64,000 nucleotides of DNA from Alphaproteobacteria bacterium (GTDB lineage: Bacteria; Pseudomonadota; Alphaproteobacteria; Rs-D84), in assembly GCA_015062525.1 (NCBI GenBank), contig SUUM01000003.1, positions 24,012-88,011 on the forward strand, written 5' to 3'. Positions within the stretch are counted from its first letter, which is position 1. Every line of letters begins with the position of its first letter. Position numbers and translations under genes: made by a program. Under the pieces are notes generated by a model. It was not told the origin of the DNA. It searched no databases and saw only the letters and a program-made list of their open reading frames with translations. This document shows, piece by piece, positions 6,275-36,483 of this stretch.

Positions 6275-8745
6275 AACTTGTCATGTGTTTTTACAAATGC
6301 ACGCATAAATCCCGGGTCAATTTGACGCATTATATCCGACAGGGAATAAGCACGTGTATTGTCCGGCATGATACTTAGTTGTATTGTTGCAGGTGTTGGT
6401 GCCGTACCGCGCAATGTTAAATCAAATTCCGCCGTCATAAACCCGTCAGTTATTGCAAAACCACCAACACCGTCTGTGTGGCGCATAGATATTTTTGCAG
6501 GTGCGGTTGTGATAAAATTACCACGTTCATAGTCGCCAATAATCTGCAATTGTTTCAATTTTGTTTCACCACCCGTTAATGCGCGCGCCAATGCATATTC
6601 TGCGTTGAATGAAGTTATGTTTTCTGCGGACGCATAAAATTCATCAAAACCAAAGCCCGATATAACACCACCATCAAATGTTAAATCCAGATTCCCGCGC
6701 AGATTATAATATATGTCATGGGCAATCTGGCCATTGGTGTTCATGGCAATTTGACCCGTTATCATTGTATCACGAATGTTCAATGGCATATTCTCAGACA
6801 GCAACCAACCGTTAATTACAAATTGATTCAGTTGCACAAATATTTCATAGTTTGTTTTATCGCGTTCAATTGTGGCAAGCATATTTCCACGGTCTGCATC
6901 CATAATAGAAAATGTTTGGGCGTTTGGTTTTAACGAATATACAAAATTCTTGTATTCATTGCCGTTGTAAATCAAACTCTGTGCGGACAATGAAATTTTA
7001 GCAGGTATGTTAAATAATATTAACAAGGGTTCATTTGTTCTAAATTCCAATTCTGCATAATTATCTATAAACGCTTGATTTATGAATGCATCAATGGACA
7101 GAACAGGTGTATGCAAGGTGATACTGTCATCGGATGCACTGCCAACAAATTCGTAATCACCCAGACGCAATGTCAGGTTTGATATTTTTCCATCTTGGTA
7201 AAAACCAGAAATAGTATATTTTGAATCATTGATTGATTGTAAATCTATGTTCGGAAACCATGCTTTGAAACTGTTGCCGGTCAAATAAAAATAGTTATCG
7301 TATTGGGATAATTGCCAATTACCACTGTACGGTGTAAATGTCAACATTCCGCCACGCCATGCAAAATCACCACGATCTGATTTCATAAAGTCGGGCAGGA
7401 ATGGAATATTTGCCCCCATGAAATCCAAAGTTTTGTTTTTAGCAAAGTTATATGAAACCCGGGTTTCTTTTTCGTCGATTTCATATATGCCACCAATGTC
7501 TGAAAATTGGAAAGAAACGCGTCCGCGCGACCCAAGTTTTTTGATGTCATTCAAAAATTTGTTCGTTTCTGGCATGGGGGTATCAGACAAAATCGTTATG
7601 TCAAACGTATCGCCATCAACGGAAATATTGCCCGATATATCGCCATACGAAAACACGGCGCAGTTCCATTTTTGTGGTGTCCCAGAAAACAAGCACATAG
7701 AATTTACACCATCAATGGGCATTGTTATCATCAGATTATCCGCACCATCCGCGGAAATCGTGCCACCTGTTATGGCAATGTCATCGATAACAACATTTGC
7801 AATCTGTAGTTTGTCAGATTCGCCAACCGCTTGAATGCGCAGGTGATTAAATTTGTACTTATCAAATTTCAGGTTTCCATAAAAATCAATATTCAGATTG
7901 GTTTTATGTATCAATTTGCCCGGATTTTTTAGAAATGAAAAATCATAATCTATATCTTCGGACACTAATTGAATATTTTTTTCGCCATTGGGTAAAATTT
8001 CTATGTTGCCAGAAATGTGGTCGGTATTTATATTGGTCAGTTTATAACTGTTGCCACCGCTCCATTCAAAATTCGTACTAAGTTTTATTGGACGGGATGT
8101 GCGTGGGGCATCAAATCCAAACCAAGAATTTATATCGTCTGTTTCAATCGATACATGGCCACGAATTGTGCCATCGGAATATATCTGTCCCGTCATCTCA
8201 AGGTTATTGTTTTTGTTTTCTATGCTGAATGTATCACCAGAAAATTCAACATCATATTTGTGATTTGCCGTGCGTATAATTCCATTAAATTCGCCATTGG
8301 AAAATTTTGCGCGGACAATATGAAATTTACGCCCCATAAAGTCTATGTTGCTGTTATAAATTTCAATAGTGTGATTAAAATTTGCGGCGGCCAGTTCGTC
8401 AATTGTTATATCTGCATCATAAACAACAACCGCTTTTTTTAATTCGGCGTGTTCCAGGTCAAAGAAATCGCGAAATGGAATAGATAACATCACGGCGCCG
8501 ATACGGGCGGTTGGTACAACAACATCATGTGCAACAATTGTTGCGCCACCAACAAGACTGAAATGAATGTCGCCATTCAATTTTGCCGGCACCGCCATTT
8601 GTTCATAAATTGATTTTTCGATTACAGGGCGAAATTTATTCAGGGTTATCATAGGCGGAATAATAATAACGGCCAAAACAAACACACCGATGATGCCCAC
8701 CAGCGTCCAGAATATTCTGCGTCTATATCTGGGTTTTAATGCCAT
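6271..8745 (-). CDS. AsmA-family large envelope protein (N-terminal membrane anchor, periplasmic beta-rich body)
   Basis: 824 aa. N-terminal TM segment (FWTLVGIIGVFVLAVIIIPPM) followed by a long low-complexity beta-rich domain, as in AsmA/TamB-like proteins. Confidence 0.5.
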   Translation of the reverse strand: MALKPRYRRRIFWTLVGIIGVFVLAVIIIPPMITLNKFRPVIEKSIYEQMAVPAKLNGDIHFSLVGGATIVAHDVVVPTARIGAVMLSIPFRDFFDLEHAELKKAVVVYDADITIDELAAANFNHTIEIYNSNIDFMGRKFHIVRAKFSNGEFNGIIRTANHKYDVEFSGDTFSIENKNNNLEMTGQIYSDGTIRGHVSIETDDINSWFGFDAPRTSRPIKLSTNFEWSGGNSYKLTNINTDHISGNIEILPNGEKNIQLVSEDIDYDFSFLKNPGKLIHKTNLNIDFYGNLKFDKYKFNHLRIQAVGESDKLQIANVVIDDIAITGGTISADGADNLMITMPIDGVNSMCLFSGTPQKWNCAVFSYGDISGNISVDGDTFDITILSDTPMPETNKFLNDIKKLGSRGRVSFQFSDIGGIYEIDEKETRVSYNFAKNKTLDFMGANIPFLPDFMKSDRGDFAWRGGMLTFTPYSGNWQLSQYDNYFYLTGNSFKAWFPNIDLQSINDSKYTISGFYQDGKISNLTLRLGDYEFVGSASDDSITLHTPVLSIDAFINQAFIDNYAELEFRTNEPLLILFNIPAKISLSAQSLIYNGNEYKNFVYSLKPNAQTFSIMDADRGNMLATIERDKTNYEIFVQLNQFVINGWLLSENMPLNIRDTMITGQIAMNTNGQIAHDIYYNLRGNLDLTFDGGVISGFGFDEFYASAENITSFNAEYALARALTGGETKLKQLQIIGDYERGNFITTAPAKISMRHTDGVGGFAITDGFMTAEFDLTLRGTAPTPATIQLSIMPDNTRAYSLSDIMRQIDPGFMRAFVKTHDKF

Positions 8746-8803
8746 TCTCTACTCCCTTGTATTTTCATTATAATGGATTATACTCTATATTGTGAATAAA
8801 AAA

Positions 8804-10795
8804 ATGAAGCGTGCAGAATTTTATCTTGAAAGTGCTTACAAGCCCATGGGCGACCAACCAACCGCGATTGCTGAATTGGTTGATGGTGTAAATGCCGGCA
8901 AACAATCCCAAGTGTTGCTGGGGGTGACGGGGTCGGGCAAAACGTTCACAATGGCAAATGTTATTGCGGAACTGGGGCGGCCCGCACTGATTATGGCACC
9001 TAATAAAATTCTGGCGGCGCAATTATACACGGAAATGAAGTCGTTCTTTCCGCGAAATCATGTTGAATATTTTGTGTCGTACTATGATTATTATCAGCCC
9101 GAGGCTTATATGCCAACAACCGATACTTATATCGACAAGGACGCATCAATTAACGAACAACTGGACCGCATGCGCCACAGTGCAACGCGCGCCATGCTAG
9201 AAGAACGTGATGTTGTCGTGGTATCATCTGTGTCGTCAATCTATGGTATGGGGTCGCCCGAACAATATGCCGGTATGCGTGTTGTATTAAGGGCGGGCGA
9301 TATTATGTCTATGCGTGATGTTATGCGTTCTTTGGTTGATATTCAATACAAACGCAACGACACAAATTTTGAACGTGGTACATTTCGCGCGCGTGGGGAT
9401 ACGTTGGATTTATTTCCGTCGCATGCAATGGACCGTGGGTGGAAATTATCGTTCTGGGGGGATGAAATCGAAGAGATTTGGGAATTCGATACCCTGACCG
9501 GGGCAAAATTACAAAAACTGGAACGGATTGCTGTTTATCCGAATACACACTATGCAACGCCAATGCCCAGTGTTTTACAGGCTATTTCCCAAATACGCAC
9601 AGACCTAAGGGAACGGTTGGAATACTTTCACGAAAATATGAAATATATCGAAGAACAGCGTCTGCGGGAACGTGTGAACTTTGACATAGAAATGATGGAA
9701 AGTACCGGCACATGTCGCGGGGTGGAAAATTATTCGCGATATTTATCGGGACGGTTGCCCGGACAGCCACCACCGACTTTGTTCGAGTATTTGCCAAAAG
9801 ATGCAGTATTGTTTATTGACGAAAGTCATGTGACGGTTCCACAAATTGGTGCTATGTCGCGGGGCGACCGTGCGCGCAAGGAAACATTGTCCCAGTATGG
9901 GTTCAGATTACCAGCATGCATTGATAACCGACCATTGACTTTTGATGAGTGGGACAATTTGCGACCACAAACAATCTTTGTTTCCGCCACACCCGCAGAA
10001 TGGGAATTGGCACAAGCGCATGGTGTTGTGTCTGAACAGGTTATAAGACCCACGGGATTATTAGACCCGGTGTGTGAAGTGCGCCCCACAGAACATCAGG
10101 TGGATGATTTGTTGGGACAAGTCAAGCAGACATCCGGGCGTGTATTGGTGACGACATTAACAAAAAAAATGGCGGAACAGTTGACCGATTACCTGAATGA
10201 AAATAACGTTCGGGCGCGATATCTGCACAGCGATATTGAAACACTGGAACGCATTGAATTATTGCGCGAATTGCGTATGGGGAAATTTGATGTTCTGGTT
10301 GGTATTAATTTGCTGCGTGAAGGTTTGGATGTGCCAGAATGTGAATTAGTGGCGATTATGGATGCAGATAAAGAAGGATTCTTGCGTTCAACGCGTTCAC
10401 TTATTCAGACAATTGGGCGTGCGGCACGTAATGCAAATGGGCGCGTTATTTTGTATGCTGATAAAATCACAGATTCTATGCGGGCGGCATTGGATGAAAC
10501 GGCGCGCAGACGTGAAAAACAAATGGCATATAATACGGAACACGGCATTACACCAACGACTGTGTCCAAGGCAATATTTGCCGAGGTTGGCGAAAAACAG
10601 GCAAAGACCGACAAGGGTCGCAGATTTGTGTACGATAAATCGGGTGGTGTGATGGATGCAGAATCGTTGCGCAAAGAGATTGTAAAACTGACTAAAAAAA
10701 TGCATAATGCCGCCCAGGACCTTGAATTTGAATTGGCCGCCGAAATACGCGACCAGATTCATAAATTAGAAGATGATTTGTTATTGGTGGAATAA
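8804..10795 (+). CDS. uvrB: Excinuclease ABC subunit B
   Basis: Walker A GVTGSGKTF, helicase motifs, and a C-terminal UVR domain (…EIRDQIHKLEDDLL). The ORF-track start at 8792 is a GTG. The ATG at 8804 (MKRAEFYLESAYKPMGDQP) matches canonical UvrB N-termini. Confidence 0.95.
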   Translation: MKRAEFYLESAYKPMGDQPTAIAELVDGVNAGKQSQVLLGVTGSGKTFTMANVIAELGRPALIMAPNKILAAQLYTEMKSFFPRNHVEYFVSYYDYYQPEAYMPTTDTYIDKDASINEQLDRMRHSATRAMLEERDVVVVSSVSSIYGMGSPEQYAGMRVVLRAGDIMSMRDVMRSLVDIQYKRNDTNFERGTFRARGDTLDLFPSHAMDRGWKLSFWGDEIEEIWEFDTLTGAKLQKLERIAVYPNTHYATPMPSVLQAISQIRTDLRERLEYFHENMKYIEEQRLRERVNFDIEMMESTGTCRGVENYSRYLSGRLPGQPPPTLFEYLPKDAVLFIDESHVTVPQIGAMSRGDRARKETLSQYGFRLPACIDNRPLTFDEWDNLRPQTIFVSATPAEWELAQAHGVVSEQVIRPTGLLDPVCEVRPTEHQVDDLLGQVKQTSGRVLVTTLTKKMAEQLTDYLNENNVRARYLHSDIETLERIELLRELRMGKFDVLVGINLLREGLDVPECELVAIMDADKEGFLRSTRSLIQTIGRAARNANGRVILYADKITDSMRAALDETARRREKQMAYNTEHGITPTTVSKAIFAEVGEKQAKTDKGRRFVYDKSGGVMDAESLRKEIVKLTKKMHNAAQDLEFELAAEIRDQIHKLEDDLLLVE

Positions 10796-13497: not shown

Positions 13498-16400
13498 ATG
13501 AAACATAATATCCTAATGGGTATATCTGTACTACCTGCCCTGTTGGTTATGCCGGCATTTGCCGACACAATCACCGCACGCCAGGTTATAACCACAAACA
13601 CAACATACAACAATCTAACCGCATCCAATATTGCATCCACCACGGCAAATAACGGCGGTGTATTTTATATGGAAAACGTGCCTACAACAACATTAACCTT
13701 TGATGGCACCAGTACCTTTTCAAACAACAGTTTGAATAACGGCGGTATGGGTGGCGCAATTGGAAACGGTTGGTTATCATCCACATCTGGCACCGGCTTT
13801 ACCCCCGGCGGTAAAATCTTATTTAATGGTGATGCCACATTTTCATCTAACACGACCAACAATCCAAACGGTGGTGGCGCAATATTTAATTATGGCAATG
13901 GCACATCCAGCAACCCGGATATAAAATTTAGCGACAATGCAACATTTATAAAAAATGCCGCCAACGGCACATCAAACAACAGTGTATTTTCTGGTGGTGG
14001 CGCAATAAACAACCGTGGTGGCACAATTATTTTTGATGACGAAGCAACATTTTCGGACAACACGTCATCTTATCGTGGTGGCGCGATTTTATCAGGTGGC
14101 GACATAATATTCAATGACACAGCAACATTTTCTGGCAACACAGCCACGACCAGCGGTGGCGCAATTACAATTCTGGGTGGCAATGTACAATTTGCAGACG
14201 ATGCCACATTTACCGGGAACACGGCTGGTGCCGGCGCAGCAATATTTTTAGACAATGCGAACACTCAACTGACCTTTGCGGATACAGCCACATTTTCATC
14301 CAACACCGGCACAGGTATTTTATTAAACAACAATGCATCTAGCACGGTATCTTTTGCCAATGGTGCAACATTTGACCGCAACACCAATCCATCGAACGGA
14401 GCATTGGTCAACACCGGCACAGTAAATGGGACCGGTGGCGACTTTATATTTACCAACAACACAGGCAGTAATGGTGGCGGTCTAAAAAACGCAGGCACCG
14501 TATCAATTGATACATCTGGGCGCATTTTATTTGACACCAACACCACCACCAGCACGGCTGGCGCGCTGGACAATGGTGGCGCGATAACTATGAAATCGGG
14601 CAACATTTCATTTACTAATAACAAATCGAATGCGGGCTATAGCGGGGCAATATTCAACGCGGGCGACCTTAGCCTTTTAGGTGCAACAAACACTTTCTCT
14701 GGCAACATCGCATCCGACACAGGTGCCACAAGCAGTGGTGGTGGCGCAATCCACAATCGTGGCAATTCTGGCACATCAACATTAATCATCGGCACACAAT
14801 CCAGCACAAACACATTTACATCTAACACATCCAGCGCACATGGCGGCGCAATTTTGTCACGTGCATTTAACGGGGCATCCCATGATTCAATTATCACTGT
14901 AAACGGCACAAGCGCATTTCGCAACAACAATGCAGCTTTCAATGGTGGTGCAATCTTGAATGTCACATCAAACGATGGTGGGGTCTCGGAAATAACATTC
15001 AACGGCAACACCTCATTTACAAACAATACTGCTGGCGGTATGGGTGGCGCAATCTATAACAATGACACCATCACCTTTAACGGCAACGCTAATTTTTCTG
15101 GCAACACGGCCGGTGGCACCGCAAATGACATCTATAACGATGGCACAGTGAACATGAACGGCAACACAACAATTGCGGGTGGCATAACAGGCAACGGCAC
15201 ATTAAATGTCGCAAGTGGTAAAACATTGAATATCGGCACAGCCACCCTGACCCAGGGCGCAGTCAACCTGGACGGCACTTTGCTTGCAACACTTCGCACC
15301 GGCAACACCGCCCAAATTAACGTCGCCAACGCGGGCGGCTTTACAGGCACCGGCAACATCAAATTATCCTTTGATTCTGCGGGCACCTATCGTGTATTCG
15401 GCAACGAAACATTTGATAACACAGACATCACCAGTTCGGTCTATGACCTGACCTGGAATGGCGGGGACGTTGTTGCAACGATTAAGTCCGTTGCAGACAT
15501 TGCATCTGAAAACAACCTGTCCAATGATGCGGCACGCACGGTTTCAAACGTATCACAATCATCTTCCAGTCGTTTGAACGACCTGTCTGTTTTAATGCAG
15601 GAAAACCTGTCCACCGGGACCCAGGCTGGACGCGACGCAGTTGAACACGCCGCCCGCGCAATCAATCCAGAAATCGCCCCAATCAACCACTCAATCAATG
15701 CATCATCTCAAAACACATTGTATCAATTGGCAACCGTGCGCTTGAATGAATTCGGCATGGGTCGCAATGGTGGCGACACAACGGTTGACCTTGGTGGCAT
15801 CTGGGCCCAGGGGCTGTATAACAAATCAAAACTGAACGACAGTTTTAACGGGTACACTCGTGGAATATCGGTTGGTTTTGATGGCACAGTGAACAACATC
15901 TTGACGTTGGGTATGGGTTATATGTACGGACATTCAGACATCGGCGCCATTGCCCGCAATACCGAAGTTGACTCACACTCAGTCTTTGCCTATGGTCAAT
16001 ATAAACCCAGCAATTGGTATATGAATGCGATTGTAAATTATACAATGTCCGATTATTCGGAACGCGGCGATGCGTTGGGCGTTTATGTATCAGGGGACTA
16101 TGACCTGAATGCATTTGGCGCGGCTGCAACCATTGGCTATGACTTTATTGGTGGCATAACACCAGAAATGTCGGTTCGGTATCTGCACATTGGTTCTGCG
16201 GAATACACAAATTCATTGGGCATCCGCAACAAAATTGATGGCACAGATTACATGACCGCATCCATTGGCACGCGGTATGGATTCGATATGCTGTTAAACA
16301 ACGGTTGGGTGCTGCGTCCACAAATGCACTATGCATTAAAATACGACCTGATATCAGACGACGGTCGCATCACGGTTGCGATGCCTGGCATCAGCGCGTA

Positions 16401-16560
16401 CAGCCTGGACGGCGAATCATTGTCGCGCATTGCGAACGAAATAGGCATTGGAATTGGCATGACGTACGGCGCATTGAACATGTCATTAAATTATGACATC
16501 GAAGCCCGTGCCGACTACACATCCCAAACCGGCCGTGTAAAATTCAGATATGAATTTTAA
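13498..16560 (+). CDS. Autotransporter (type Va) with a passenger domain built from Pmp-type GGAI/FxxN repeats and a C-terminal 12-strand beta-barrel
   Basis: 1020 aa. Signal peptide MKHNILMGISVLPALLVMPAFA. More than 20 repeats of the pattern (F[ST][GDN]N[TS]…GGAI). C-terminus ends …RVKFRYEF (terminal aromatic). Confidence 0.85.
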   Translation: MKHNILMGISVLPALLVMPAFADTITARQVITTNTTYNNLTASNIASTTANNGGVFYMENVPTTTLTFDGTSTFSNNSLNNGGMGGAIGNGWLSSTSGTGFTPGGKILFNGDATFSSNTTNNPNGGGAIFNYGNGTSSNPDIKFSDNATFIKNAANGTSNNSVFSGGGAINNRGGTIIFDDEATFSDNTSSYRGGAILSGGDIIFNDTATFSGNTATTSGGAITILGGNVQFADDATFTGNTAGAGAAIFLDNANTQLTFADTATFSSNTGTGILLNNNASSTVSFANGATFDRNTNPSNGALVNTGTVNGTGGDFIFTNNTGSNGGGLKNAGTVSIDTSGRILFDTNTTTSTAGALDNGGAITMKSGNISFTNNKSNAGYSGAIFNAGDLSLLGATNTFSGNIASDTGATSSGGGAIHNRGNSGTSTLIIGTQSSTNTFTSNTSSAHGGAILSRAFNGASHDSIITVNGTSAFRNNNAAFNGGAILNVTSNDGGVSEITFNGNTSFTNNTAGGMGGAIYNNDTITFNGNANFSGNTAGGTANDIYNDGTVNMNGNTTIAGGITGNGTLNVASGKTLNIGTATLTQGAVNLDGTLLATLRTGNTAQINVANAGGFTGTGNIKLSFDSAGTYRVFGNETFDNTDITSSVYDLTWNGGDVVATIKSVADIASENNLSNDAARTVSNVSQSSSSRLNDLSVLMQENLSTGTQAGRDAVEHAARAINPEIAPINHSINASSQNTLYQLATVRLNEFGMGRNGGDTTVDLGGIWAQGLYNKSKLNDSFNGYTRGISVGFDGTVNNILTLGMGYMYGHSDIGAIARNTEVDSHSVFAYGQYKPSNWYMNAIVNYTMSDYSERGDALGVYVSGDYDLNAFGAAATIGYDFIGGITPEMSVRYLHIGSAEYTNSLGIRNKIDGTDYMTASIGTRYGFDMLLNNGWVLRPQMHYALKYDLISDDGRITVAMPGISAYSLDGESLSRIANEIGIGIGMTYGALNMSLNYDIEARADYTSQTGRVKFRYEF

Positions 16561-19343: not shown

Positions 19344-20444
19344 TTAATCAGAAATTTCTTCAACCATTTTATACAAGTCTTTAAATCTGTATATTGATGG
19401 GCTCTGACCAGTACCTCTTTCTTCTACTTCAAGAATTTTTTTATCTTCTAAGCTTTTTAACAGAGATCTTGCGGTACTTGCTTTAATTCCGGTTTTTTCT
19501 ATAAAATCGGTCGTTTTAAATTTAATTTGCTTAAACAAGAAGTTTAGTACAGGTATACAAAACTGTGTTTTTAAATCCGATATTTCTTCTTCCGTTTTTC
19601 TTCTGATTTCTTTTAATCGTCTAAGAGTGTTTGTTAATACAATGGTTTGTTGTTCTATCGCTGTTATGAAAAAATTAATCCAAGTTTGCCAGTCATTTTC
19701 TTTTGATATTTTTTCTAATGCATTGATGTATTTTGTTCTGTTTATAGAAAAATAATAACTTATATAAAAATATGGCGTAGATAAGATATTATATTTTTTT
19801 AAGAGTATCGGTATCAAAATACGACCAACTCTACCATTTCCGTCCTCAAAAGGGTGTATTAATTCAAAATACGCATGAATAATGGCAGTTTTTATTAAAA
19901 GGTTTTCTGAATGATTTGAGTTTATGAAGTCAATCAAGTTATTCATATATTCTTCTGTGTGCAAATATGATACGGGAGTATAAGTTATTTCTCCGTCATA
20001 TTTATTGCCAATATAATTTTGTTTTTCTTTATATTTCCCTTTTAATTTATCGCCACCCCTAGAATTCGTTAATATAATGGCCTGAATATTTTTAATCAAT
20101 CTACTCGTAATTTTAAAATTGTTATCTTCTGCTTCTTTTATGCAATAACCCAAAGCATCTTTATAATTTTCTATTTCTGTTGCGTCTTTTTCTAATCTTT
20201 CAGATAAATTCTTACCAACTTTATAGTTTAAGATATCTGTAATTGTGGCTATAGTACCTTCTAATCTTGAAGACATTACAGATTCTTGATAAAAAAGTAT
20301 ACTTGTTAATACTTCTGGATAAGGAATAAATTCTACCATGCCATCGTATTTAGCTAATTTCAATAAAGCACTATTAGTATTTTCAGAAAAAGATATATCT
20401 GTCAATATATCTGGAAATTTTTTTAATACAAAAGAATTTGTCAT
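19344..20444 (-). CDS. Fic family protein (AMPylator/FIDO fold), class II, with an N-terminal autoinhibitory SxxxEG motif and a C-terminal winged-helix domain
   Basis: Catalytic motif HPFEDGNGRVGR present. Inhibitory helix motif …MSSRLEGT… about 50 aa from the N-terminus. C-terminal ~80 aa are wHTH-like. Confidence 0.9.
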   Translation of the reverse strand: MTNSFVLKKFPDILTDISFSENTNSALLKLAKYDGMVEFIPYPEVLTSILFYQESVMSSRLEGTIATITDILNYKVGKNLSERLEKDATEIENYKDALGYCIKEAEDNNFKITSRLIKNIQAIILTNSRGGDKLKGKYKEKQNYIGNKYDGEITYTPVSYLHTEEYMNNLIDFINSNHSENLLIKTAIIHAYFELIHPFEDGNGRVGRILIPILLKKYNILSTPYFYISYYFSINRTKYINALEKISKENDWQTWINFFITAIEQQTIVLTNTLRRLKEIRRKTEEEISDLKTQFCIPVLNFLFKQIKFKTTDFIEKTGIKASTARSLLKSLEDKKILEVEERGTGQSPSIYRFKDLYKMVEEISD

Positions 20445-20734: not shown

Positions 20735-20980
20735 TCATTTCCAAAAATGTCTTTTTGCGAATGCGTGTCCGGAACCCGTTTTAAGATATTGTTCAAAATC
20801 CAATGCAGCGTCTTTGGAACTAAACGCAAAATAATTTACCAATTCCCAAGGTTTATATTTTGCTGTATGTATTGAATATCCCGCATTATGTTGCTTTAAC
20901 CGCTGTTTCAAATCATCAGTTTGCCCGATGTATTTTTGTTCTGGACGGGAAATGCTTTTTATAAGATAGACATAAAACAT
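20735..20980 (-). CDS. GIY-YIG nuclease-family small protein (81 aa; UvrC-N-terminal-like)
   Basis: Motifs YVYLIKS…KYIGQTDDLKQRLKQHN. Located immediately beside tRNA-Gln. Confidence 0.85.
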   Translation of the reverse strand: MFYVYLIKSISRPEQKYIGQTDDLKQRLKQHNAGYSIHTAKYKPWELVNYFAFSSKDAALDFEQYLKTGSGHAFAKRHFWK

Positions 20981-21078: not shown

Positions 21079-21152
21079 TGGTTGGGGCGCACGGATTCGA
21101 ACCATGATAAAGAGAACCAAAATCTCTTGTCCTACCATTAGACGACACCCCA
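21079..21152 (-). tRNA. tRNA-Gln (anticodon UUG)
   Basis: 74-nt cloverleaf. U1-A72 acceptor pair and UGGGG start typical of bacterial tRNA-Gln. Anticodon loop TTTTGGT, T-loop TTCGAAT, encoded CCA. Confidence 0.8.
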
Positions 21153-21235: not shown

Positions 21236-21838
21236 CTAAGATTCTTCTTCCATCTCTTCTTCTTCATCAGATTCGACGGCATTCAAATCAATTTCCTTGG
21301 GAATACCTAAAATATCTTCAATTTTGTCCGACGCCGCATCCAGGTCAATCTTATGCAGCACTGCAAATTCCTGGGCCATACGTTCCAGCGCACGCAAATA
21401 TAACTGGCGCGCGGAAAACGTCATTGTGTCCGCCGCACTACGCCGTTGCAAATCACGTACCACCTCGGCCAACTTCATTGGGTCACCCGAATTGATATTT
21501 TCTTCGTACTGGGCGGCACGTCGCGCCCAAATCATACGTTTTACACCCGCCTTGCCCTTGGCGGATGCAATCGCCTCGTCCATTTTTTTGGCGGTCGTCA
21601 ACGGACGCAACCCTGAAATTTCTGCACGTTCCACTGGCACACGCAACGTCATATGGTTACGTTCAAAATCAATCACCAACATTTTTATTTTCTGTCCAGC
21701 GATTACTTGTTCCTCGATACGAACCAGCTTTCCAACACCCTGGGTTGGATAGACAACATACTGTCCCGTTTTAAAATCTAGCTTTTTACTTGGCATTATT
21801 GGATACCCTTTTACGGTTGCCATTCTCTCTGTACCCAA
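21236..21838 (-). CDS. carD: CarD-family transcriptional regulator (CdnL-like, RNAP-binding) with an acidic C-terminal tail
   Basis: N-terminal RID-like domain (KTGQYVVYPTQGVGKLVRIEEQVIAGQ…). Acidic tail ESDEEEEMEEES. Confidence 0.75.
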   Translation of the reverse strand: MGTERMATVKGYPIMPSKKLDFKTGQYVVYPTQGVGKLVRIEEQVIAGQKIKMLVIDFERNHMTLRVPVERAEISGLRPLTTAKKMDEAIASAKGKAGVKRMIWARRAAQYEENINSGDPMKLAEVVRDLQRRSAADTMTFSARQLYLRALERMAQEFAVLHKIDLDAASDKIEDILGIPKEIDLNAVESDEEEEMEEES

Positions 21839-21918: not shown

Positions 21919-22581
21919 TTATACCGCATGCTTTTTCAACAAACTTTGCACCGCCAACGGAAAATCAGTCGCCCGCGCCAAATAAGACCCCGACACTAAC
22001 AAATCCGCCCCCGCGTCCCAACATAACTGGGCTGTTTTGTCGTTAATTCCCCCATCAACAGAAATTGTGAATTTCAAACCATACTTTTTACGCGTCGCGG
22101 CCATCACAGAAATCTTGTGCAACGCGCCCGGGTCAAATGCCTGCCCCGCCGCCCCCGGCGCAACAGACATAACCATAACCTCGTCCACATCGCGCAAAAT
22201 CGGCTTTAACAGCGCAACATTTGAATCTGGATGCAACGCCACCCCAACGCGTCGTCCCGCCGCACGCACATTACGCAACGCCGTCTTGAACCCGGACGTA
22301 TTGGTTGACAATATCACCGTATCTGCCCCCACCGCAATCGCATCCGCCGCCCACACAACCGGACTTTCAGTCATCAAATGCACATGCAAGTGCGCATTGG
22401 TTCGGGCACGAATATTTTTTAACTCGTCAATTCCACCGGCAATTCTGTCTACATAGAACCCATCCATAATATCAACATGAATCATAGAAATCCCACCCGA
22501 CTGAAACAGTGAATACGTTTCCGCCCGTCTCATATCAAAACATAAACTGCTGGGCAAAATCGGAATAAATCTTTGAACTTT
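21919..22581 (-). CDS. rpe: Ribulose-phosphate 3-epimerase domain, in frame with and directly continuing the ftsA reading frame (no own start codon; boundary approximate)
   Basis: …IPILPSSLCFDMRRAETYSLFQSGGISMIHVDIMDGFYVD… aligns with the Rpe N-terminus (IAPSILSADF…HFDVMDNHYVPN). C-terminal TIM-barrel motifs present (…SVDGGIN…). Confidence 0.75.
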   Translation of the reverse strand, partial: KVQRFIPILPSSLCFDMRRAETYSLFQSGGISMIHVDIMDGFYVDRIAGGIDELKNIRARTNAHLHVHLMTESPVVWAADAIAVGADTVILSTNTSGFKTALRNVRAAGRRVGVALHPDSNVALLKPILRDVDEVMVMSVAPGAAGQAFDPGALHKISVMAATRKKYGLKFTISVDGGINDKTAQLCWDAGADLLVSGSYLARATDFPLAVQSLLKKHAV

Positions 22582-23697
22582 CTTGGGCTTGCGATGGAAA
22601 ATTTTTCCAATCCAACTTGTACGTCGCGCCCAGCGTTCATGTCGCGAAATATAACTTTGCCTATGTGCCGATTCCCCATTCCAAACATAATCAGACAGCG
22701 CACGCACCGTTGCATCCGCCGACAGCACTTCGGTCATAACGGCAAATGCATTTTCAATAAAATCACGCAACCCTTCAATCTCGGCACCACCACCGGACAA
22801 AACAATCTTGGTCGGACGATATTTGGTAAAGGACGGCAAACATTGGTCCTTTAATTGCCCGATAATATCAACCAATATCGGCAACACAATGTCATTTACA
22901 TCCCCGCGCGAAAAATCATAGGCACGATCGGCGGGCGCAAATCGGTCCATTTCCTTGGGTACCAGGGATGCCACCGCACGTTTTATCCTGTCTGCAGAAT
23001 CAAAGTCTATATTTAACTTATCAACAATGGCGCGTGTAATATCCGTGCCACCCTTTTCTATTTTCGCATGCCAAACGGGGCCACGGTCGGTCCATATAGA
23101 CGCGCTTGTAAATTGGGCACCAAAATCAACGAACAACGTATTTTGTTTTTCTGCGCGCACAATTGCATTTTGTACAAATTGCGGATCAAACATAGCATCC
23201 GCCTGAATATGCGCGCCGCGCAACTTTTCAAATACCGCATCCACACCATCGCGCGAATAATAAATCACCCCAAACGCAGAAATCAACTGCCGGTCAACAT
23301 GTCCCAGGGGCGACACCATATTTCGCGCCTGGGGCGCATCATACCGCAGTGGCACAATATGCATTGGGAAAAATCCGTCCGCGGGTTTAATTTGCGAGAT
23401 TTGATTTCTAACATCCGTCATAGTAATCTTGTGTTCCCCACCCCAAACGGTACTTTTCGCACACATTTCATATTTTGATATACCAAAATTCCCCGTGATA
23501 AAGGCACTATCAAAATGGGAACCGATTTGTTTTTCCAATTCATCCACAACGGACTTAATCGCAAATACCGTATCATAACTGTCCATTGAAAAGAACGCAG
23601 ATTTATCAATCTTTGCGCTACGCACACGATGTGCAATACCACGCACACCACACGTGCCAATATCAAGACACAAAAAAGACGAATCAAATAAATTCAT
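22582..23697 (-). CDS. ftsA: Cell division protein FtsA (actin-like ATPase), lacking its own stop codon and reading through into rpe
   Basis: LDIGTCGVRGIA (phosphate 1), FVDFGAQFTSASIW, GGTDITRAI, IVLSGGGAEIEGL, and a C-terminal amphipathic membrane-targeting helix (WARRTSWIGKIFHRKPKK). ftsQ lies immediately upstream. Confidence 0.7.
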
Positions 23698-23701
23698 ACC
23701 C

Positions 23702-24409
23702 TTACTTTACCAATATTCGTGATGCATCGCGCATATCTATCACGCTTATATCACGCTTGAAAATCTGATGATTATTATTCAGCGACACCAATGTTCCAAT
23801 CGCCCCAATTGGATTTTCCTCGGGCAACAGAACCGTGATACCACCCATTATATGCAGATTCCAACGTCTGTTCTCAATCCATTCAAGATAATCCAGCATC
23901 CCCACCAAATTATGTGCAGCCTTGGTAATTTCATCTATATCATTTGGCACCACACCACGAAACACAACATGCGCCACATCACGCGCATCAGTTGGTTTAT
24001 TTACAATTGTACCATCCGCCGACAACGGGTAAAAATGTTCCCCATCTGTCCACAATGCCACCGCCGTGTACAAAGAAACCCGAACCACTAAATTTCCGTT
24101 TGGCAAACGACGAACCGCGGACTTTTTTACCCCCGGCACCGCCCCAACACGTGCATTCAGCGCATCTAAATCAACCGAATAAGACTGCGTTCCCGGCGCA
24201 ACCGTCGCCGCCATCGCCAGCGCAGATAAATCCTTGTTATTTTTATCCGCAGTAATTGAAATATTACGCACCCGCGAAATATTACCATGCCCCATTCCAA
24301 CCATAATGATACGAGACGCAAAATAGACCGCCAAAATTACGGAAACAATAAAACACAACCAAAACCAGATTGACCGCTTCATAAGCACAATTATATCACA
24401 AAAAAACAC
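23702..24409 (-). CDS. ftsQ: Cell division protein FtsQ/DivIB (bitopic, POTRA domain)
   Basis: N-terminal TM (SIWFWLCFIVSVILAVYFA). Size and position upstream of ftsA fit FtsQ. Confidence 0.7.
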   Translation of the reverse strand: MFFCDIIVLMKRSIWFWLCFIVSVILAVYFASRIIMVGMGHGNISRVRNISITADKNNKDLSALAMAATVAPGTQSYSVDLDALNARVGAVPGVKKSAVRRLPNGNLVVRVSLYTAVALWTDGEHFYPLSADGTIVNKPTDARDVAHVVFRGVVPNDIDEITKAAHNLVGMLDYLEWIENRRWNLHIMGGITVLLPEENPIGAIGTLVSLNNNHQIFKRDISVIDMRDASRILVK

Positions 24410-24455: not shown

Positions 24456-25262
24456 TTATTGCATAAACTGTGTTGCGATACTGCCCAATGATTGCAAAGC
24501 ACCCATTCCACCACTGTTTGCAACCCCACCAACTGTTTGCATAATCGTCGCAGTATTGGTCTTTTGCCCCAAACCACCAACGGTATCAACCAAAAATTCA
24601 CCCCACAATGCTTTTTTCTTGGCGTTTAATTTTGCATACGAACAATTTTCAATCTTGGAAATCAACGTTCCGGCCATTTTTGCTTCTTGCTGGGTATAGT
24701 CCGCCGTATCAAAATCAATCAAATTAAACACATCATATATATTGGATACATACTGTTTATTTTTATCCGAACACCCGGTCAGAGAACCATCCGTACAATA
24801 ATAAGTACTGACCGCCATTGGGAACTTTTCCCAGACCATCCCGTCATTACCGCTGCCCCCAAACCAATCATAGCAGATTAAATCTTTTTCATCTGTCCCT
24901 TGGGCAATACGCGTGGTCGATTCATAACCACCCGTTGGCGTCGTACAGCGTTTCATACCCAATGATGTCTGAACTTCGTCCGCGGTCTTGGCACCTGTTT
25001 TTGCCCATTCTTTGATGGTATTATTCACAAAGGTTATTTCAGAACTGCTGGGGATACATTCAGCGGTCAACGCCTTTTGCTGTTGTGTTAATTGTTTAAC
25101 CCCACTGACCAGTCCCAAAACAGATCCAACCAAACTGGCTGTATTATCTGTGGTTGACGCTGCCTTGGTCGCAACGGGCGCGGCCTTTTTAATGGTAACA
25201 GCCATGGCAACATTCTGCGCCATGAATATGGTCCCAACAAAGAACAGTAAAAATTTCTTCAT
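24456..25262 (-). CDS. Secreted Cys-rich hypothetical protein (268 aa)
   Basis: Signal peptide MKKFLLFFVGTIFMAQNVAMA. 10 Cys. No catalytic motif recognised. Confidence 0.5.
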   Translation of the reverse strand: MKKFLLFFVGTIFMAQNVAMAVTIKKAAPVATKAASTTDNTASLVGSVLGLVSGVKQLTQQQKALTAECIPSSSEITFVNNTIKEWAKTGAKTADEVQTSLGMKRCTTPTGGYESTTRIAQGTDEKDLICYDWFGGSGNDGMVWEKFPMAVSTYYCTDGSLTGCSDKNKQYVSNIYDVFNLIDFDTADYTQQEAKMAGTLISKIENCSYAKLNAKKKALWGEFLVDTVGGLGQKTNTATIMQTVGGVANSGGMGALQSLGSIATQFMQ

Positions 25263-31796: not shown

Positions 31797-32900
31797 TTAC
31801 GATAATGCGGACGTGATTTGGTCCTGCATCTGAAACGTCCCAAGCACCACCCAAGCGATTATGGCGGACACCAATAAAATCCCCAAACTGTTTAATGTAT
31901 TTGAAATCTTTTCCATCTTGCGCACAGACTCGTTCAAATAATCGTTTGCAACTTGATTCAGATTTTCATCAAACTCATTCATATCGGCATAAATTGTTAA
32001 ATCCCCAATAATTTCAGAATCTGGGAAATCGCGCCCGGTATGCGCCAATGCCCGCCCCAAGTTTTCCCCATTTGCGATATATTTTAATGCGCGTTCCAGA
32101 ATACTTTTCAAATATCTGTTCGCGCTATCCGCCAACATTCGCATAGCATCCGGGATTGCAACACCGGCACTTACCATTGCACCCAAACTCATCAGCCAAC
32201 CAACAGACACCTGAATTTTATACACACTCCACGGGGGTAATTTATCAAACATCGCACGCAGGCGCCCCGACCAGTTGGCCAGACTGACCCACACAACGGC
32301 AATTACCGATGCAAACACCACCAGGAAAATATACCAATACCGAATTGAAACATCAGACAACCACACCAAAGACTGCGCCGTCCCGCGCCAAACAACATCG
32401 CTGCCTGCGATTTCCGCCAATGGTGGCACCAAATATAATCCCACCATAATGATGATACCAAACGTTAACGCCAATAAAAACAGTGGATATCCAATCGCAG
32501 ACGTCATTGCCCGTCTGATACGTTGTGTACCATCAACCACACGTCCAACGTTTTCAAGTGCGACCACCAAATTAGATAAATTACCACTGGTCACCAACAG
32601 TGTTTCATTTTCCGGCACCCAACCACGTGTTGCCTCGGAAAAACTCATACCACGTTCCAGGTTTTTTTGCCATTCGCGCATAACAATTGCAAACGGTTCG
32701 CGCGGTTTTGTCCCCCCATGCGATTCAATCATTTCCAAACGTTCCAGCGCATCAATCAGCGTGAAATCATTACGCAACAAGGATGCCAATTTTCTACAAA
32801 TTGACATACGTTTTTCCGTATTCATCCGGAACATTAACTTGGCATATAATAATTCCAATTTATTCATATCAATATGCCCCCGGCTGGTCCAGTTGTCCAA
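31797..32900 (-). CDS. GspF/PilC-family inner-membrane platform protein (T2SS-F domain, 3 TM; BfpE/TcpE-sized)
   Basis: 367 aa. Two cytoplasmic ~130-aa helical domains, each followed by TM segments. Overlaps the upstream ATPase gene by 32 nt. Confidence 0.6.
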   Translation of the reverse strand: MDNWTSRGHIDMNKLELLYAKLMFRMNTEKRMSICRKLASLLRNDFTLIDALERLEMIESHGGTKPREPFAIVMREWQKNLERGMSFSEATRGWVPENETLLVTSGNLSNLVVALENVGRVVDGTQRIRRAMTSAIGYPLFLLALTFGIIIMVGLYLVPPLAEIAGSDVVWRGTAQSLVWLSDVSIRYWYIFLVVFASVIAVVWVSLANWSGRLRAMFDKLPPWSVYKIQVSVGWLMSLGAMVSAGVAIPDAMRMLADSANRYLKSILERALKYIANGENLGRALAHTGRDFPDSEIIGDLTIYADMNEFDENLNQVANDYLNESVRKMEKISNTLNSLGILLVSAIIAWVVLGTFQMQDQITSALS

Positions 32901-34503
32901 CCCAGCGTTCTAATTCATCAACACTAATTACACCTTGCAACATTAACGACACGGCGGCCTCTTTTAGCGTACGTCCATCCATTTCTTCTAACCAATAACG
33001 CACCGCCCCATCTGTATTACCTGATAATGCCAGACGCAAAAATTCACTGTTTGTGATGATAATTTCACCCGCTTTGACACGCCCAATATTGCCTGTACCA
33101 TTACAATGCGCGCATCCCGCACCACGTTGATATACCTGGCGCAGACCAACATCACCATACGCATCCATAACACGACGATACGCACCACGTTCTGGGTGAT
33201 TTGCCAATGGTTCGCGACAATGTGGACAAACCTTTTTGAACAGACGCATAGACACCAATCCACGCATCAATGTTTCTTCTTTTAATTTAAAGGATTCAAC
33301 CCCTAAATCCAACAATCGTGTCAGGGCCGCCATGGCTGAATTAGCATGCAATGTTGTCCAAACATTATGCCCCGACAACGCGCCACGCACGGTTAATTCC
33401 GCCGCCGCCAACGTACGAATTTCCCCCACCATAAGCGTATCAGGGTCGCTGCGCAACGCCGCCGCCAAGGCTTCGACATACTTTTCTTCACGTTGTTCTT
33501 CATTGGTTGCATTAACAACCGGCATCTGACGTGCGCCAAAAATCTTTTGTTCAACGGGGTTTTCCACCGTAATCATATTAATTTCATAGTTGCGTTCTTT
33601 CAGCATCAACGACATATTGCGTACCAACGTCGTTGACTTACCAGAACTGGTCGGCCCCGCCACAATCACCAAACCCGTCGGAAAGGAACGCATACGTGCC
33701 AACAAACGCTGTTCATAGGGGCCAAATTCTTGTTCAACCTTGATCCCTTCGGACGGATTATCATACAACAATCGCATAACCGCATATCGCGTACCAAACG
33801 CGATTGGGTTAAACTGCATACGCACGCCCAACACCCCCGATGGCAGGTATAAATCCTTGGTTCCACGCAATGGTGTACGACCATCCTTTTGCGCAGATTG
33901 ATATTCATTTACCGCATAGTTCGCATTGGAAATATCCGCCGATGCAAATGCTGCGCGCAGGAACGATTCCCCCCATTGGGAATTATATTCCATAACGGGC
34001 TGCATACTGCCGTCTATGCGGAAATATATTGTTGTCTGGTCTGCGACTTCGACATGAACGTCTGACACTTTTTGTGCGGCGGCCTTGGCGATAATATCAA
34101 CAAAATCCTTTTGCATCTGGTTATCAAAGTCCGCACGTCCGCGCCCTGCCCCCCCCAGATGACTTTCATATGATTTATAAATATGTGAAATTAATCCCAG
34201 GTCCGAATAAAACGGTTCACGCATTTTGCGATTACGTTTTTTCAGCAACTCTAAAAACGCCAGCACCCGTCCATCATATCGATGTGTACGCGATATAATA
34301 ATTTCCCCACCGGAAAAATACGCAACCAAACCCTGCGTATCATGTGGCAATTCAAACATTGCCCCGGTCGCGGTCAACAAACGATTTCCATTAGAAAACA
34401 AATAATCAATAATATCTTTGGAATCTGCACTTTCCAGTCCCGCCGGAATTGACGGCATACTTTGAAATTTGATATTATCAAAATCACTTGTTTTATTTGG
34501 CAT
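32869..34503 (-). CDS. GspE/PilB-family secretion/pilus-assembly ATPase with a C-terminal tetracysteine zinc motif
   Basis: Walker A GPTSSGKSTT, Asp/His boxes (…DPDTLMVGEIR…, VWTTLHANSA), and CPHC…CAHC zinc-knuckle motifs. Confidence 0.85.
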   Translation of the reverse strand: MPNKTSDFDNIKFQSMPSIPAGLESADSKDIIDYLFSNGNRLLTATGAMFELPHDTQGLVAYFSGGEIIISRTHRYDGRVLAFLELLKKRNRKMREPFYSDLGLISHIYKSYESHLGGAGRGRADFDNQMQKDFVDIIAKAAAQKVSDVHVEVADQTTIYFRIDGSMQPVMEYNSQWGESFLRAAFASADISNANYAVNEYQSAQKDGRTPLRGTKDLYLPSGVLGVRMQFNPIAFGTRYAVMRLLYDNPSEGIKVEQEFGPYEQRLLARMRSFPTGLVIVAGPTSSGKSTTLVRNMSLMLKERNYEINMITVENPVEQKIFGARQMPVVNATNEEQREEKYVEALAAALRSDPDTLMVGEIRTLAAAELTVRGALSGHNVWTTLHANSAMAALTRLLDLGVESFKLKEETLMRGLVSMRLFKKVCPHCREPLANHPERGAYRRVMDAYGDVGLRQVYQRGAGCAHCNGTGNIGRVKAGEIIITNSEFLRLALSGNTDGAVRYWLEEMDGRTLKEAAVSLMLQGVISVDELERWVGQLDQPGAY

Positions 34504-34508
34504 ATTGA

Positions 34509-35186
34509 TTATTTCCCACTGCTGACATTCAAATTCTGTGTTACGCCGTCTTTGTCAACGAACACAACACCATCATACAATGATATAGATTTCACCGTTA
34601 ACCCATCCAACGACTTTCCAACACTAATACGCTTAGATTGGCCTGTATTTAAATCTTCCACAGTCGCCTGTAATTGTGAGCCCGCCCCAACAACATTAAC
34701 CAAACGATATTTTTTTGTAATATCAATTTCCGGTTCTTCTTCTGCGGCTTCGGGCACAGACATGGCCTTTGCCATCTTTTGTTCTTCTATATTTGCTAAC
34801 CAAGATTCCTTTTCTTGTTCGATACGCGCGGCCTCGGCCTCTAACTTGGCCTTTTGTGTTTCAATTTCCTGTTGTTGCTGTTCTGCACGTCCCGACAAAG
34901 TATCAATTTCCATATGCAACTTGATTTTTTCGGCCGCTAATCTGTCCAATTCTAAATCCAATTGGGCGCGTTCCTTTTCCAATTGCATAAGAACCTTTTC
35001 CTGTTCCAAATCAGTAATTTGTTGGAACAGCGACCCCGACACATCATAACCAGCGACCGCATCCGCCGATACTTCTTCCATATCGACATCAACTTCTACA
35101 ACTTCATCTACTGCGGCAAACGCGCTTGAAACCGCACCACAAAAAATCAACCCCAATAAAAACATTTTCTTATTTTGCATAGACAA
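34509..35186 (-). CDS. Periplasmic coiled-coil protein (GspM/PilO-like by position), signal or anchor at the N-terminus
   Basis: 225 aa. Hydrophobic N-terminus MFLLGLIFCGAVSSAFA, then a long heptad-repeat region (LEQEKVLMQLEKERAQLDLELDRLAAEKIKL…). Confidence 0.5.
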   Translation of the reverse strand: MSMQNKKMFLLGLIFCGAVSSAFAAVDEVVEVDVDMEEVSADAVAGYDVSGSLFQQITDLEQEKVLMQLEKERAQLDLELDRLAAEKIKLHMEIDTLSGRAEQQQQEIETQKAKLEAEAARIEQEKESWLANIEEQKMAKAMSVPEAAEEEPEIDITKKYRLVNVVGAGSQLQATVEDLNTGQSKRISVGKSLDGLTVKSISLYDGVVFVDKDGVTQNLNVSSGK

Positions 35187-36483
35187 TCACCTCATAGTTC
35201 CAAGAACGCGAACGCACATCCCATGATGCCTGCATCATATATACGCCGCCAAATTCATCAAATATTTTCATAAACTGCATCGGCACCAGTTTTGATTCCG
35301 CGCCAACCTCTACCACATTAACAGACGCAGTATCAACCCCGTTTGTTAACGTATCAACAACAACCAAAGTTTCAACATTTGTATCAATTCCCTGAAATGC
35401 AGTCGTAATATCACGCACAACCGTATCTGGGTCGCGTTCATCCTGGGACGAAAACACTTCCAATGTCGGCAGGGTTGCCCGCACACGAATTGTATCTTCA
35501 TCAATTTCACTTACAAAGGCCCCCGGCATCAACTGTGTTGCAATATTATAAAATTCACCAATTGTTCCAAAACTGCGAACAAATTCCGCCACAACATGCG
35601 TTTCGCCACAGGTTGCATAAACCTGATTCCAACCTGCAATCGGTTGCATAACAAAACCAATTGCCTGATAACATTGTTCTGCCCGCGCCATCACATCCGG
35701 CAACAATTCATACGGCATAACAATTGGCTCGGGCGGTAATTCTTTTTCTATTTCAAACTGCTCGTCTAACTTTTTGCTGCTTTCTTCTATCTGACGTTTA
35801 TATTCCGCCACCAATTCTGGATCCAATTCTGCCACTTTTGGGCGCGGACTAAGTGTCTGAACAATAGAATCATGAAATATCAGCGCCAATCCAAAAATAA
35901 ACACCCCAATCAGAACAGCGGACACCATCCCCGCACCAAAGCGACTGATTGAATGTAATACAACATTATTGCGTGCCACCAACAAATCCGCAAGATTACG
36001 TTCCGCCGCCCGCGGCATACCCCACGCACCTGGTGCAAAAAACGCCCCCCAGTCTGGAATTTCTGATAACTTGACATATTCCTTGCGTGCTTCGTCTTCG
36101 GATTCGAACACACTGTCTTCCAGAATAATTCCATTACGTGCCGCGACTAAATAGAATTTTTTTCCCATCGCAAACACCGCCAAAAAAGATGTATATTCTG
36201 AAAAACTGTTCATCACGGCAACGGCGGCAACATGCATTCCCGCCCGCACACCATTTTTACGCGCCGCCAACCCAACCATTTCGCGGTATTCAGTATATAA
36301 ACTTAATTTTTTATCAATATTACGCGACAAATTGCGTGCATAATTGCGCGCAGTAAATCCCGCAGAAACAGGTTGCCAAAACAACCCGACCGCATACTTC
36401 TTACGATTAACAGATATAGTCTGACTGGCCAAGTAAATTCTCTCTCTGAATATTCTGTTGTAAATTATAACACAAAATCCCAA
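35170..36483 (-). CDS. Bitopic inner-membrane assembly protein (GspL/BfpC-like topology: ~190-aa cytoplasmic domain, 1 TM, ~220-aa periplasmic domain)
   Basis: 437 aa with a single central TM (MVSAVLIGVFIFGLALIF). First gene of a four-gene overlapping operon ending with the GspF-like gene. Confidence 0.45.
   Translation of the reverse strand: MGFCVIIYNRIFRERIYLASQTISVNRKKYAVGLFWQPVSAGFTARNYARNLSRNIDKKLSLYTEYREMVGLAARKNGVRAGMHVAAVAVMNSFSEYTSFLAVFAMGKKFYLVAARNGIILEDSVFESEDEARKEYVKLSEIPDWGAFFAPGAWGMPRAAERNLADLLVARNNVVLHSISRFGAGMVSAVLIGVFIFGLALIFHDSIVQTLSPRPKVAELDPELVAEYKRQIEESSKKLDEQFEIEKELPPEPIVMPYELLPDVMARAEQCYQAIGFVMQPIAGWNQVYATCGETHVVAEFVRSFGTIGEFYNIATQLMPGAFVSEIDEDTIRVRATLPTLEVFSSQDERDPDTVVRDITTAFQGIDTNVETLVVVDTLTNGVDTASVNVVEVGAESKLVPMQFMKIFDEFGGVYMMQASWDVRSRSWNYEVIVYAK

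Follow-up and report, generated by a model that had tools for sequence, protein, structure and literature searches.

The DNA analysed here is a 64,000-nucleotide stretch of contig SUUM01000003.1, which comes from an alphaproteobacterium of the Rs-D84 lineage; we refer to the whole stretch as the window and give all coordinates in it. On its minus strand lies an open reading frame (ORF) in which an FtsA-type cell division domain continues in frame into ribulose-phosphate 3-epimerase (Rpe). The 592-codon ORF (21919-23697, minus strand) contains no internal stop codon and both Pfam domains were found in it, as had been proposed in an earlier reading made from the sequence only, which described a single in-frame ftsA-rpe ORF of 592 amino acids (aa). 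Its parts, the structural ones taken from an AlphaFold2 (AF2) model, are the following.

21919-23697, minus strand: FtsA-Rpe fusion ORF, 592 aa, ATG start, stop codon included
22672-23697, minus strand: FtsA-type actin-fold domain, aa 1-342 (AF2, Foldseek, profile and motifs)
22597-22671, minus strand: helix, aa 343-367 (AF2 secondary structure)
22561-22596, minus strand: disordered polybasic linker, aa 368-379, HRKPKKVQRFIP (charge and AF2 predicted local distance difference test, pLDDT)
21919-22560, minus strand: Rpe TIM barrel, aa 380-592, the barrel itself 380-588 (Pfam, NCBIfam and Foldseek)

The Pfam model Ribul_P_3_epim (PF00834) matched aa 391-573 of the fusion with 140.9 bits (cutoff 21.1), and the Pfam model FtsA (PF14450) matched aa 189-327 with 37.0 bits (cutoff 31.8). 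Among the NCBIfam models, the rpe subfamily NF004076 was recognized with a score of 171.7 (cutoff 165), and the Rpe equivalog TIGR01163 gave 147.1, below its cutoff of 212.6. The AlsE model NF007266 scored 124, so far under its cutoff of 271 that Rpe is the best sequence assignment for the barrel. PilM models of Pfam and NCBIfam also matched the N-terminal domain. The SHS2_FTSA domain was not detected in the window protein in the Pfam scan; it exceeded the Pfam cutoff in a distant member of the family (locus L084).

Domains and linker of the fused protein

The AF2 model was built from 44 family members and has a mean pLDDT of 91.7. In this model, aa 1-342 form an actin fold of four subdomains (1A, 1C, 2A, and 2B), mostly with pLDDT above 90, and the 1C (SHS2) insert is located at about aa 73-162. 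A Foldseek comparison of the N-terminal domain with the PDB gave FtsA structures as the top matches (3wt0, 1e4g, 7q6f, 4a2a, and 7q6d; template modelling (TM) scores of 0.67-0.74), and PilM was matched with a TM score of 0.52. The family profile of the N-terminal domain matched FtsA chains over positions 42-340, subdomain 1C included, with E-values from 1e-20 to 5e-13; the match to PilM (4e-12) covered the C-terminal half only, and that to MreB was weaker. The nucleotide-binding motifs D12-I-G14 (phosphate-1), D191-F-G193 (phosphate-2), and G302-G-G304 (adenosine) are conserved in core-family proteins and most distant members. Three distant fusions (P0142, P0152, and P0153) carry Tyr in place of D12 (IYPG or IYFG), with the Rpe catalytic residues intact, and judging by this substitution ATP binding of the FtsA part may be altered in that subgroup.

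With the canonical FtsA proteins of E. coli, Vibrio maritimus, T. maritima, and S. aureus (7q6d, 7q6f, 4a2a, and 3wqt), the fusion shares the actin-like fold with 1C/SHS2, the DxG, DxG, and GGG nucleotide motifs, the position of the gene right after ftsQ, and a helix after the core whose end is modestly amphipathic and basic. It differs from them in that ftsZ is not the next gene and in that the putative membrane-targeting segment is internal, followed by an enzyme domain of 213 aa. It is also only 14-18% identical to the solved FtsAs and remains under the cutoff of the ftsA equivalog TIGR01174. The FtsA part had been called complete in the sequence-only reading; the fold and the gene position agree with this, but the sequence is very divergent. 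PilM-PilN fusions, four of which were found among the weak matches (P0224, P0232, P0245, and P0263), are similar in that an FtsA/PilM-type ATPase carries a second, C-terminal module placing it at the membrane. There, however, what has been added is a transmembrane protein that belongs, like the ATPase, to the pilus-assembly machinery, whereas here it is a soluble enzyme of central metabolism.

The counts of linker properties, codons, and start motifs given below were made across a set of 81 orthologues. Along the helix 343-367, the pLDDT of the model drops from 83 to 55, and at aa 368-374 it is below 50, which indicates disorder. The first half of the helix is conserved (HR..Y[IL]AR..RW), and its second half, WARRTSWIGKIF, is amphipathic and resembles the membrane-targeting sequence of FtsA. 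The net charge of aa 350-376 lies between +5 and +13 in every orthologue (mean +9.7). The maximum hydrophobic moment over 14 residues of the linker segment was 0.65 on average; for the E. coli FtsA tail, the value is 0.62. Four distant members (P0147, P0149, P0157, and P0159) and locus L084 have no helix before the barrel; the linker there is short and basic or unstructured. Because of this helix-less subgroup, the amphipathic segment is not universal in the family.

In the C-terminal part, the TIM barrel of the AF2 model begins at strand 380-383, and the motif IPILPSS is located at aa 378-384. Together with the match to PF00834, this agrees with the earlier description of an Rpe that is complete from its first β-strand. 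The best Foldseek match of the domain was Rpe from S. pyogenes (2fli), with a TM score of 0.92, a root mean square deviation of 1.3 Å, and 37% identity. The metal and catalytic residues (H407, D409, H440, and D548), the Met cushion (M411/M442/M510), and the phosphate-binding positions (P514-G515..G518-Q519, G549-G550, and G570-S571) do not vary within the core family. The TIM barrel, the His/Asp/His/Asp metal ligands, the Met cushion, and the phosphate-binding loops are thus shared with the stand-alone enzyme of S. pyogenes, but the fused barrel lacks a conserved start codon as well as a separate N-terminus, and strand β1 comes directly after the FtsA linker. From its residues and fold, the barrel is predicted to be a catalytically competent epimerase.

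The catalytic set is lost only in P0131 and P0134, two AT-rich distant fusions. In these, H407 is replaced by N or Y and D548 by Y or C, and the PG..GQ loop is missing; in addition, D409 is replaced by T in P0134 and H440 by N in P0131. The Rpe-like domain of both is still of full length. P0134, whose cluster has 14 members on contigs of up to 198 kb, has also lost the DIG and GGG motifs of FtsA. The retention of a full-length Rpe-like domain after these losses hints at a non-catalytic role for it, as does the persistence of the fusion without any fission being observed. When the Rpe domain of the window protein was compared with solved Rpes, 2fli was the best match with E = 2e-38, at the identity given above. 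The plant and cyanobacterial enzymes followed at 1e-24 to 1e-26, the Pseudomonas enzyme at 1e-22, and those of Neisseria, Stenotrophomonas, and Francisella at 1e-18 to 1e-20. By this ranking, the rpe half may be of non-alphaproteobacterial origin.

Spread of the fusion and selection on its parts

The identical 592-aa protein was found on 18 independent contigs (JGI, ENA, and Logan). An initial homology search gave more than 120 clusters with 71-96% identity and a length of about 592 aa. Both Pfam domains occur in all of them, and in their alignment the junction is free of indels; the clusters at 90% identity that are about 590 aa long number in the hundreds. Relatives were scanned in one genome per GTDB species. 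It resulted in 153 positive genomes, the best 80 of which were fetched. In all 80, the ORF is uninterrupted, is 588-598 aa long, and has the Rpe motif HxDxMDG near residue 407, and the GC content of the loci ranges from 0.34 to 0.56. These best 80 of the 153 are metagenome-assembled genomes (MAGs) labelled Candidatus Enterousia, Alphaproteobacteria, or Rickettsiales, i.e., the Rs-D84 gut lineage, and their hosts include yak, deer, goat, sheep, chicken, and human.

For a search in depth, the FtsA part alone (aa 1-377) was compared with 1.84 billion cluster representatives. Down to 23% identity (E ~1e-14), every match of sufficient length for a judgement is 542-623 aa long, and each of these proteins continues by way of a basic linker into a domain resembling Rpe. 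Proteins of ordinary FtsA size (~390-440 aa) start only at E ~1e-11, and no relative with E < 1e-12 that was long enough to judge lacked the Rpe domain. The two shorter strong matches both end within Rpe (P0126 just stops, and P0121 loses the similarity to Rpe before its end), and from their sequences they look like truncated or damaged fusion records. In two further profile searches, mainly core-family members came up again, together with additional fusions, and no relative without the fusion was among them; the short matches in these searches were only fragments or records marked partial (P0279, P0283, P0292, and P0335). The named source records are annotated as 'ribulose-phosphate 3-epimerase' and come from Alphaproteobacteria or Rickettsiales MAGs. 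At the distant end, the group closest to locus L084 (P0147, P0149, P0157, and P0159) is 23-29% identical to the FtsA part of the window protein. The sequence-only reading had suggested comparing relatives for separate ftsA and rpe genes. Among the relatives of the FtsA part with E < 1e-12 and of sufficient length, none had them separate, and the fusion was upheld.

Selection was estimated by the Nei-Gojobori method in 67 pairs at 80-97% identity. The ratio of non-synonymous to synonymous substitution rates (dN/dS) was 0.073 in the FtsA core, 0.151 in the linker, and 0.059 in Rpe; within the linker, it was 0.16 in the helix 343-367 and 0.14 in the disordered stretch 368-379. Linker indels among the orthologues are in frame only and comprise 0-4 residues. 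The synonymous divergence (pS) was 0.66 in the linker and 0.57-0.61 in the domains. Since the linker value is not below that of the domains, no embedded nucleotide signal is visible. As judged from these ratios, purifying selection acts on both domains and on the linker, which is constrained as protein.

The sequence-only reading had offered a sequencing error at the junction as an alternative to a real in-frame fusion. This alternative is contradicted by the 18 contigs with the exact protein and by the uninterrupted ORF in 80 of 80 species genomes. An error of sequencing or assembly was therefore ruled out, with the in-frame linker indels and the purifying selection as further grounds. The fusion is conserved in every relative examined and is genuine, not an artefact.

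Genes around the fusion

Three genes adjoin the fusion or occupy the places where other division genes are canonically found.

23702-24409, minus strand: ftsQ (Pfam FtsQ_DivIB_C)
24456-25262, minus strand: hypothetical gene with a signal-peptide-like N-terminus, at the canonical ddl place upstream of ftsQ (no Pfam match)
21236-21838, minus strand: CarD/CdnL-family gene, at the canonical ftsZ place downstream (Pfam CarD_TRCF_RID and CarD_C)

The ftsQ gene ends 4 nt before the ATG of the fusion. Its public gene call has 226 aa, and its true start therefore probably lies near 24382. It is located directly upstream of the fusion in 79 of the 80 loci, the exception being a locus that starts at a contig end, and also in the very distant locus L084. 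The CarD gene was found downstream of the fusion only in the 5 closest relatives, and the hypothetical gene is likewise conserved only in the closest relatives. No FtsZ tubulin signature, Mur-ligase motif, or second Rpe motif was detected in the 64-kb window. What the sequence-only reading had said of this neighbourhood was confirmed: ftsZ does not follow ftsA, its place being taken by CarD; ftsQ is preceded by a gene for a secreted hypothetical protein, here the ORF with the signal-peptide-like start; and the division and cell wall (dcw) cluster is fragmented, as also seen from the absence of ftsZ within 6 kb in all 80 loci.

Neighbouring genes differ between lineages. Locus L084 and the mid-distance locus L065 have the same gene order (lolD-like, lolC-like, hypotheticals, ftsQ, the fusion, and then tsaE on the opposite strand). 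The fact that L084 keeps the neighbourhood of L065 points to one old fusion event that was inherited vertically.

In these two distant relatives, lolCD-like genes border ftsQ and the fusion on one side, and tsaE, uvrB, and asmA border them on the opposite side. The window has its uvrB and asmA at 6271-10795 and a lolC-like gene at 242-1495. The ~11 kb between uvrB and the fusion contain genes for CarD, tRNA-Gln, a GIY-YIG protein, a Fic protein, an autotransporter, and a GT8 glycosyltransferase. Beside CarD are the genes for a Fic-domain protein (19344-20444, minus strand), a small GIY-YIG nuclease-domain protein (20735-20980, minus strand), and tRNA-Gln (21079-21152, minus strand). The GIY-YIG gene, like CarD, was found downstream only in the closest relatives. 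The spot looks like a small mobile or insertion-prone site at a tRNA gene.

A pilus/secretion cluster is encoded on the minus strand at 31797-36483. It consists of a T2SSF-like protein (31797-32900), a T2SSE ATPase (32869-34503), an unassigned ORF of 225 aa, and a PAP_PilO-type accessory protein (35170-36483); such a cluster is notable for a genome of ~0.9 Mb. Cell wall genes are also present in the window: a penicillin-binding protein transpeptidase (55052-56827) adjoins an FtsW/RodA-family SEDS protein (53902-55047), the pair being preceded by two small ORFs (56817-58096), and lpxC and lpxK are located at 38206-40043, with no ftsZ adjoining lpxC. The cell wall and division genes are scattered and do not form one dcw cluster. 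A VirB4/TrbE-family ATPase of 807 aa (43246-45669) and the autotransporter of 1020 aa (13498-16560) represent surface or secretion functions and may be tied to a host- or partner-associated lifestyle.

Alternative explanations and the possible role of the fusion

We consider it probable that the locus represents a genuine ancient fusion expressed as one polypeptide of ~66 kDa, in which an FtsA orthologue, its tail turned into an internal linker, is joined to a catalytically competent Rpe. Several observations weigh against this interpretation. The TIGR01174 model aligned with aa 27-338 but scored 54.8 against a cutoff of 175.85, and an FtsZ tubulin signature was present within 6 kb of the fusion in 0 of the 80 loci. 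The predicted TM score (pTM) of the AF2 model, 0.61, indicates no fixed orientation between the FtsA and Rpe domains. The string that the sequence-only reading took for an amphipathic helix, WARRTSWIGKIFHRKPKK, does exist at aa 356-373, but the amphipathicity of the linker is modest when compared with shuffled sequences (mean z 0.86; above 1.64 in 14% of the orthologues), and in four distant members the helix is missing altogether. In 76 of the 81 orthologues, the start of the fusion itself has no Shine-Dalgarno-like motif, so that Shine-Dalgarno evidence gives no grounds against internal initiation. Finally, Rs-D84 genomes are strongly reduced (PMC12306168), and a harmless fusion could persist in them.

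The low TIGR01174 score and the absent ftsZ, along with the matching PilM models, are what could be said for an N-terminal domain that is not FtsA but a PilM-like or repurposed actin-fold ATPase, with the true FtsA encoded elsewhere. We regard this as very improbable, because ftsQ adjoins the fusion in 79 of the 80 loci and in L084, the profile matches FtsA over its whole length including 1C/SHS2 (1e-20, compared with 4e-12 and the C-terminal half for PilM), FtsA outranks PilM in fold (TM ~0.7 compared with 0.52), and a separate pilus cluster in the window comes with T2SSE, T2SSF, and a PilO-type accessory protein of its own. On the grounds of the ftsQ adjacency, the ranking of fold and profile over PilM and MreB, and the separate pilus cluster, the N-terminal domain was treated as the highly diverged FtsA orthologue of the lineage. 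The frame could also be fused and two proteins still be made, by internal initiation near codon 381 or by proteolysis in the linker, whose disordered, Lys/Arg-rich sequence is a plausible protease site. The sequence-only reading had found no ATG, GTG, or TTG available for Rpe, which proved inexact: codon 381, the Leu of IPILPSS, is TTG in the window ORF, and codon 389 is ATG. Across the orthologues, codon 381 is TTG in 20, ATG in 33, TTA in 25, and CTG in 3, so that 53 of the 81 have a TTG or ATG there, and codon 389 is ATG in all 81. A Shine-Dalgarno motif at codon 381 was found in 1 of the 81; as an argument against an internal start this was dropped, since the true start of the ORF shows the motif in only 5 of the 81 and its absence at the junction is uninformative. 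Translation of the fusion may be coupled to that of ftsQ across the 4-nt gap, or the lineage may initiate without this motif. Nevertheless, codon 381 is not a usual start in 28 of the 81 (TTA or CTG) and is therefore not a conserved internal start, and M389 is not kept in the distant fusions. In the AF2 model, a start at 381 would trim strand β1 (380-383), and one at 389 would delete it. The linker has no embedded nucleotide signal (pS 0.66, not below the domains), and at the protein level its length and charge are conserved. Production of two separate proteins thus appears improbable to us.

A more serious rival, which we consider possible though doubtful, accepts the fusion as real and takes it as functionally neutral: an accident of deletion bias, after which FtsA and Rpe work as if alone and the tether has no role. 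The genome reduction mentioned above speaks for it, as do the neighbours that vary by lineage with no wider operon logic apparent, the lack of an interdomain interface suggested by AF2 (pTM 0.61), and two active sites that look ordinary. It is opposed by the absence of any observed fission despite divergence to 23% identity in the FtsA part, by the constraint on linker length, charge, and helix (dN/dS 0.15), and by P0131 and P0134, in which the Rpe domain is still of full length although its catalytic residues are gone.

For the tethered protein that we favour, the following mechanism can be proposed. FtsA is known to anchor FtsZ to the membrane by its C-terminal amphipathic helix and to form membrane-bound oligomers and double filaments (PMC7613929). 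By analogy, the FtsA part of the fusion would still anchor FtsZ to the membrane, the polybasic, amphipathic linker would lie on the membrane, and Rpe would be held tethered there or at the divisome. Solved Rpe enzymes are dimers or hexamers. For this reason, self-association of the Rpe barrel would probably cross-link FtsA protomers and raise the membrane avidity. The fusion most likely originated once, by the loss of the ftsA stop codon and of intergenic DNA in a genome-reducing ancestor, and it would be kept now since the genome probably encodes both functions nowhere else. The Rs-D84 genomes have 0.67-1.6 Mb and lack most biosynthesis; of the pentose-phosphate pathway, they retain the non-oxidative part, minus transaldolase (PMC12306168).

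A further step, which we think unlikely, would be that the Rpe barrel has been co-opted into the divisome, so that its oligomerisation, its binding of pentose phosphates, or both control the polymer state or the membrane attachment of FtsA. P0131 and P0134, which keep the domain without the catalytic residues, would fit a structural or sensing role that persists after catalysis is lost. In Caulobacter, the metabolic enzymes CitA, KidO, and GdhZ act on the cell cycle or on FtsZ, one of them independently of catalysis (PMC7083601). These are likewise alphaproteobacterial enzymes of central metabolism tied to the cell cycle or division, but the likeness is an analogy only: they are separate proteins with no covalent fusion to the divisome, and Rpe is not among them. 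If the co-option were true, Rpe would wire division directly to the supply of pentose phosphates, the precursors of nucleotides and lipopolysaccharide sugars.

Literature searches returned no paper on an FtsA-Rpe fusion. Both domain families are known; the architecture of FtsA, internalised tail, and metabolic enzyme is so far undescribed in the papers found. The paper on these reduced genomes makes no mention of FtsA or cell division (PMC12306168). Public databases name the fusions solely 'ribulose-phosphate 3-epimerase', and consequently automated surveys would score Rs-D84/Enterousia as lacking FtsA.

The family offers a natural experiment on FtsA, in which the membrane-targeting segment, if it works, is internal and is followed by a domain of ~24 kDa that probably oligomerises. 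It bears on how tether length, membrane avidity, and filament state of FtsA control the divisome. The covalent link between the divisome and an enzyme of the pentose-phosphate pathway is a testable case of a possible coupling of metabolism to division in host-associated bacteria that are uncultured and have minimal genomes. For such tests, each half can be expressed in E. coli, without culturing the source organisms.

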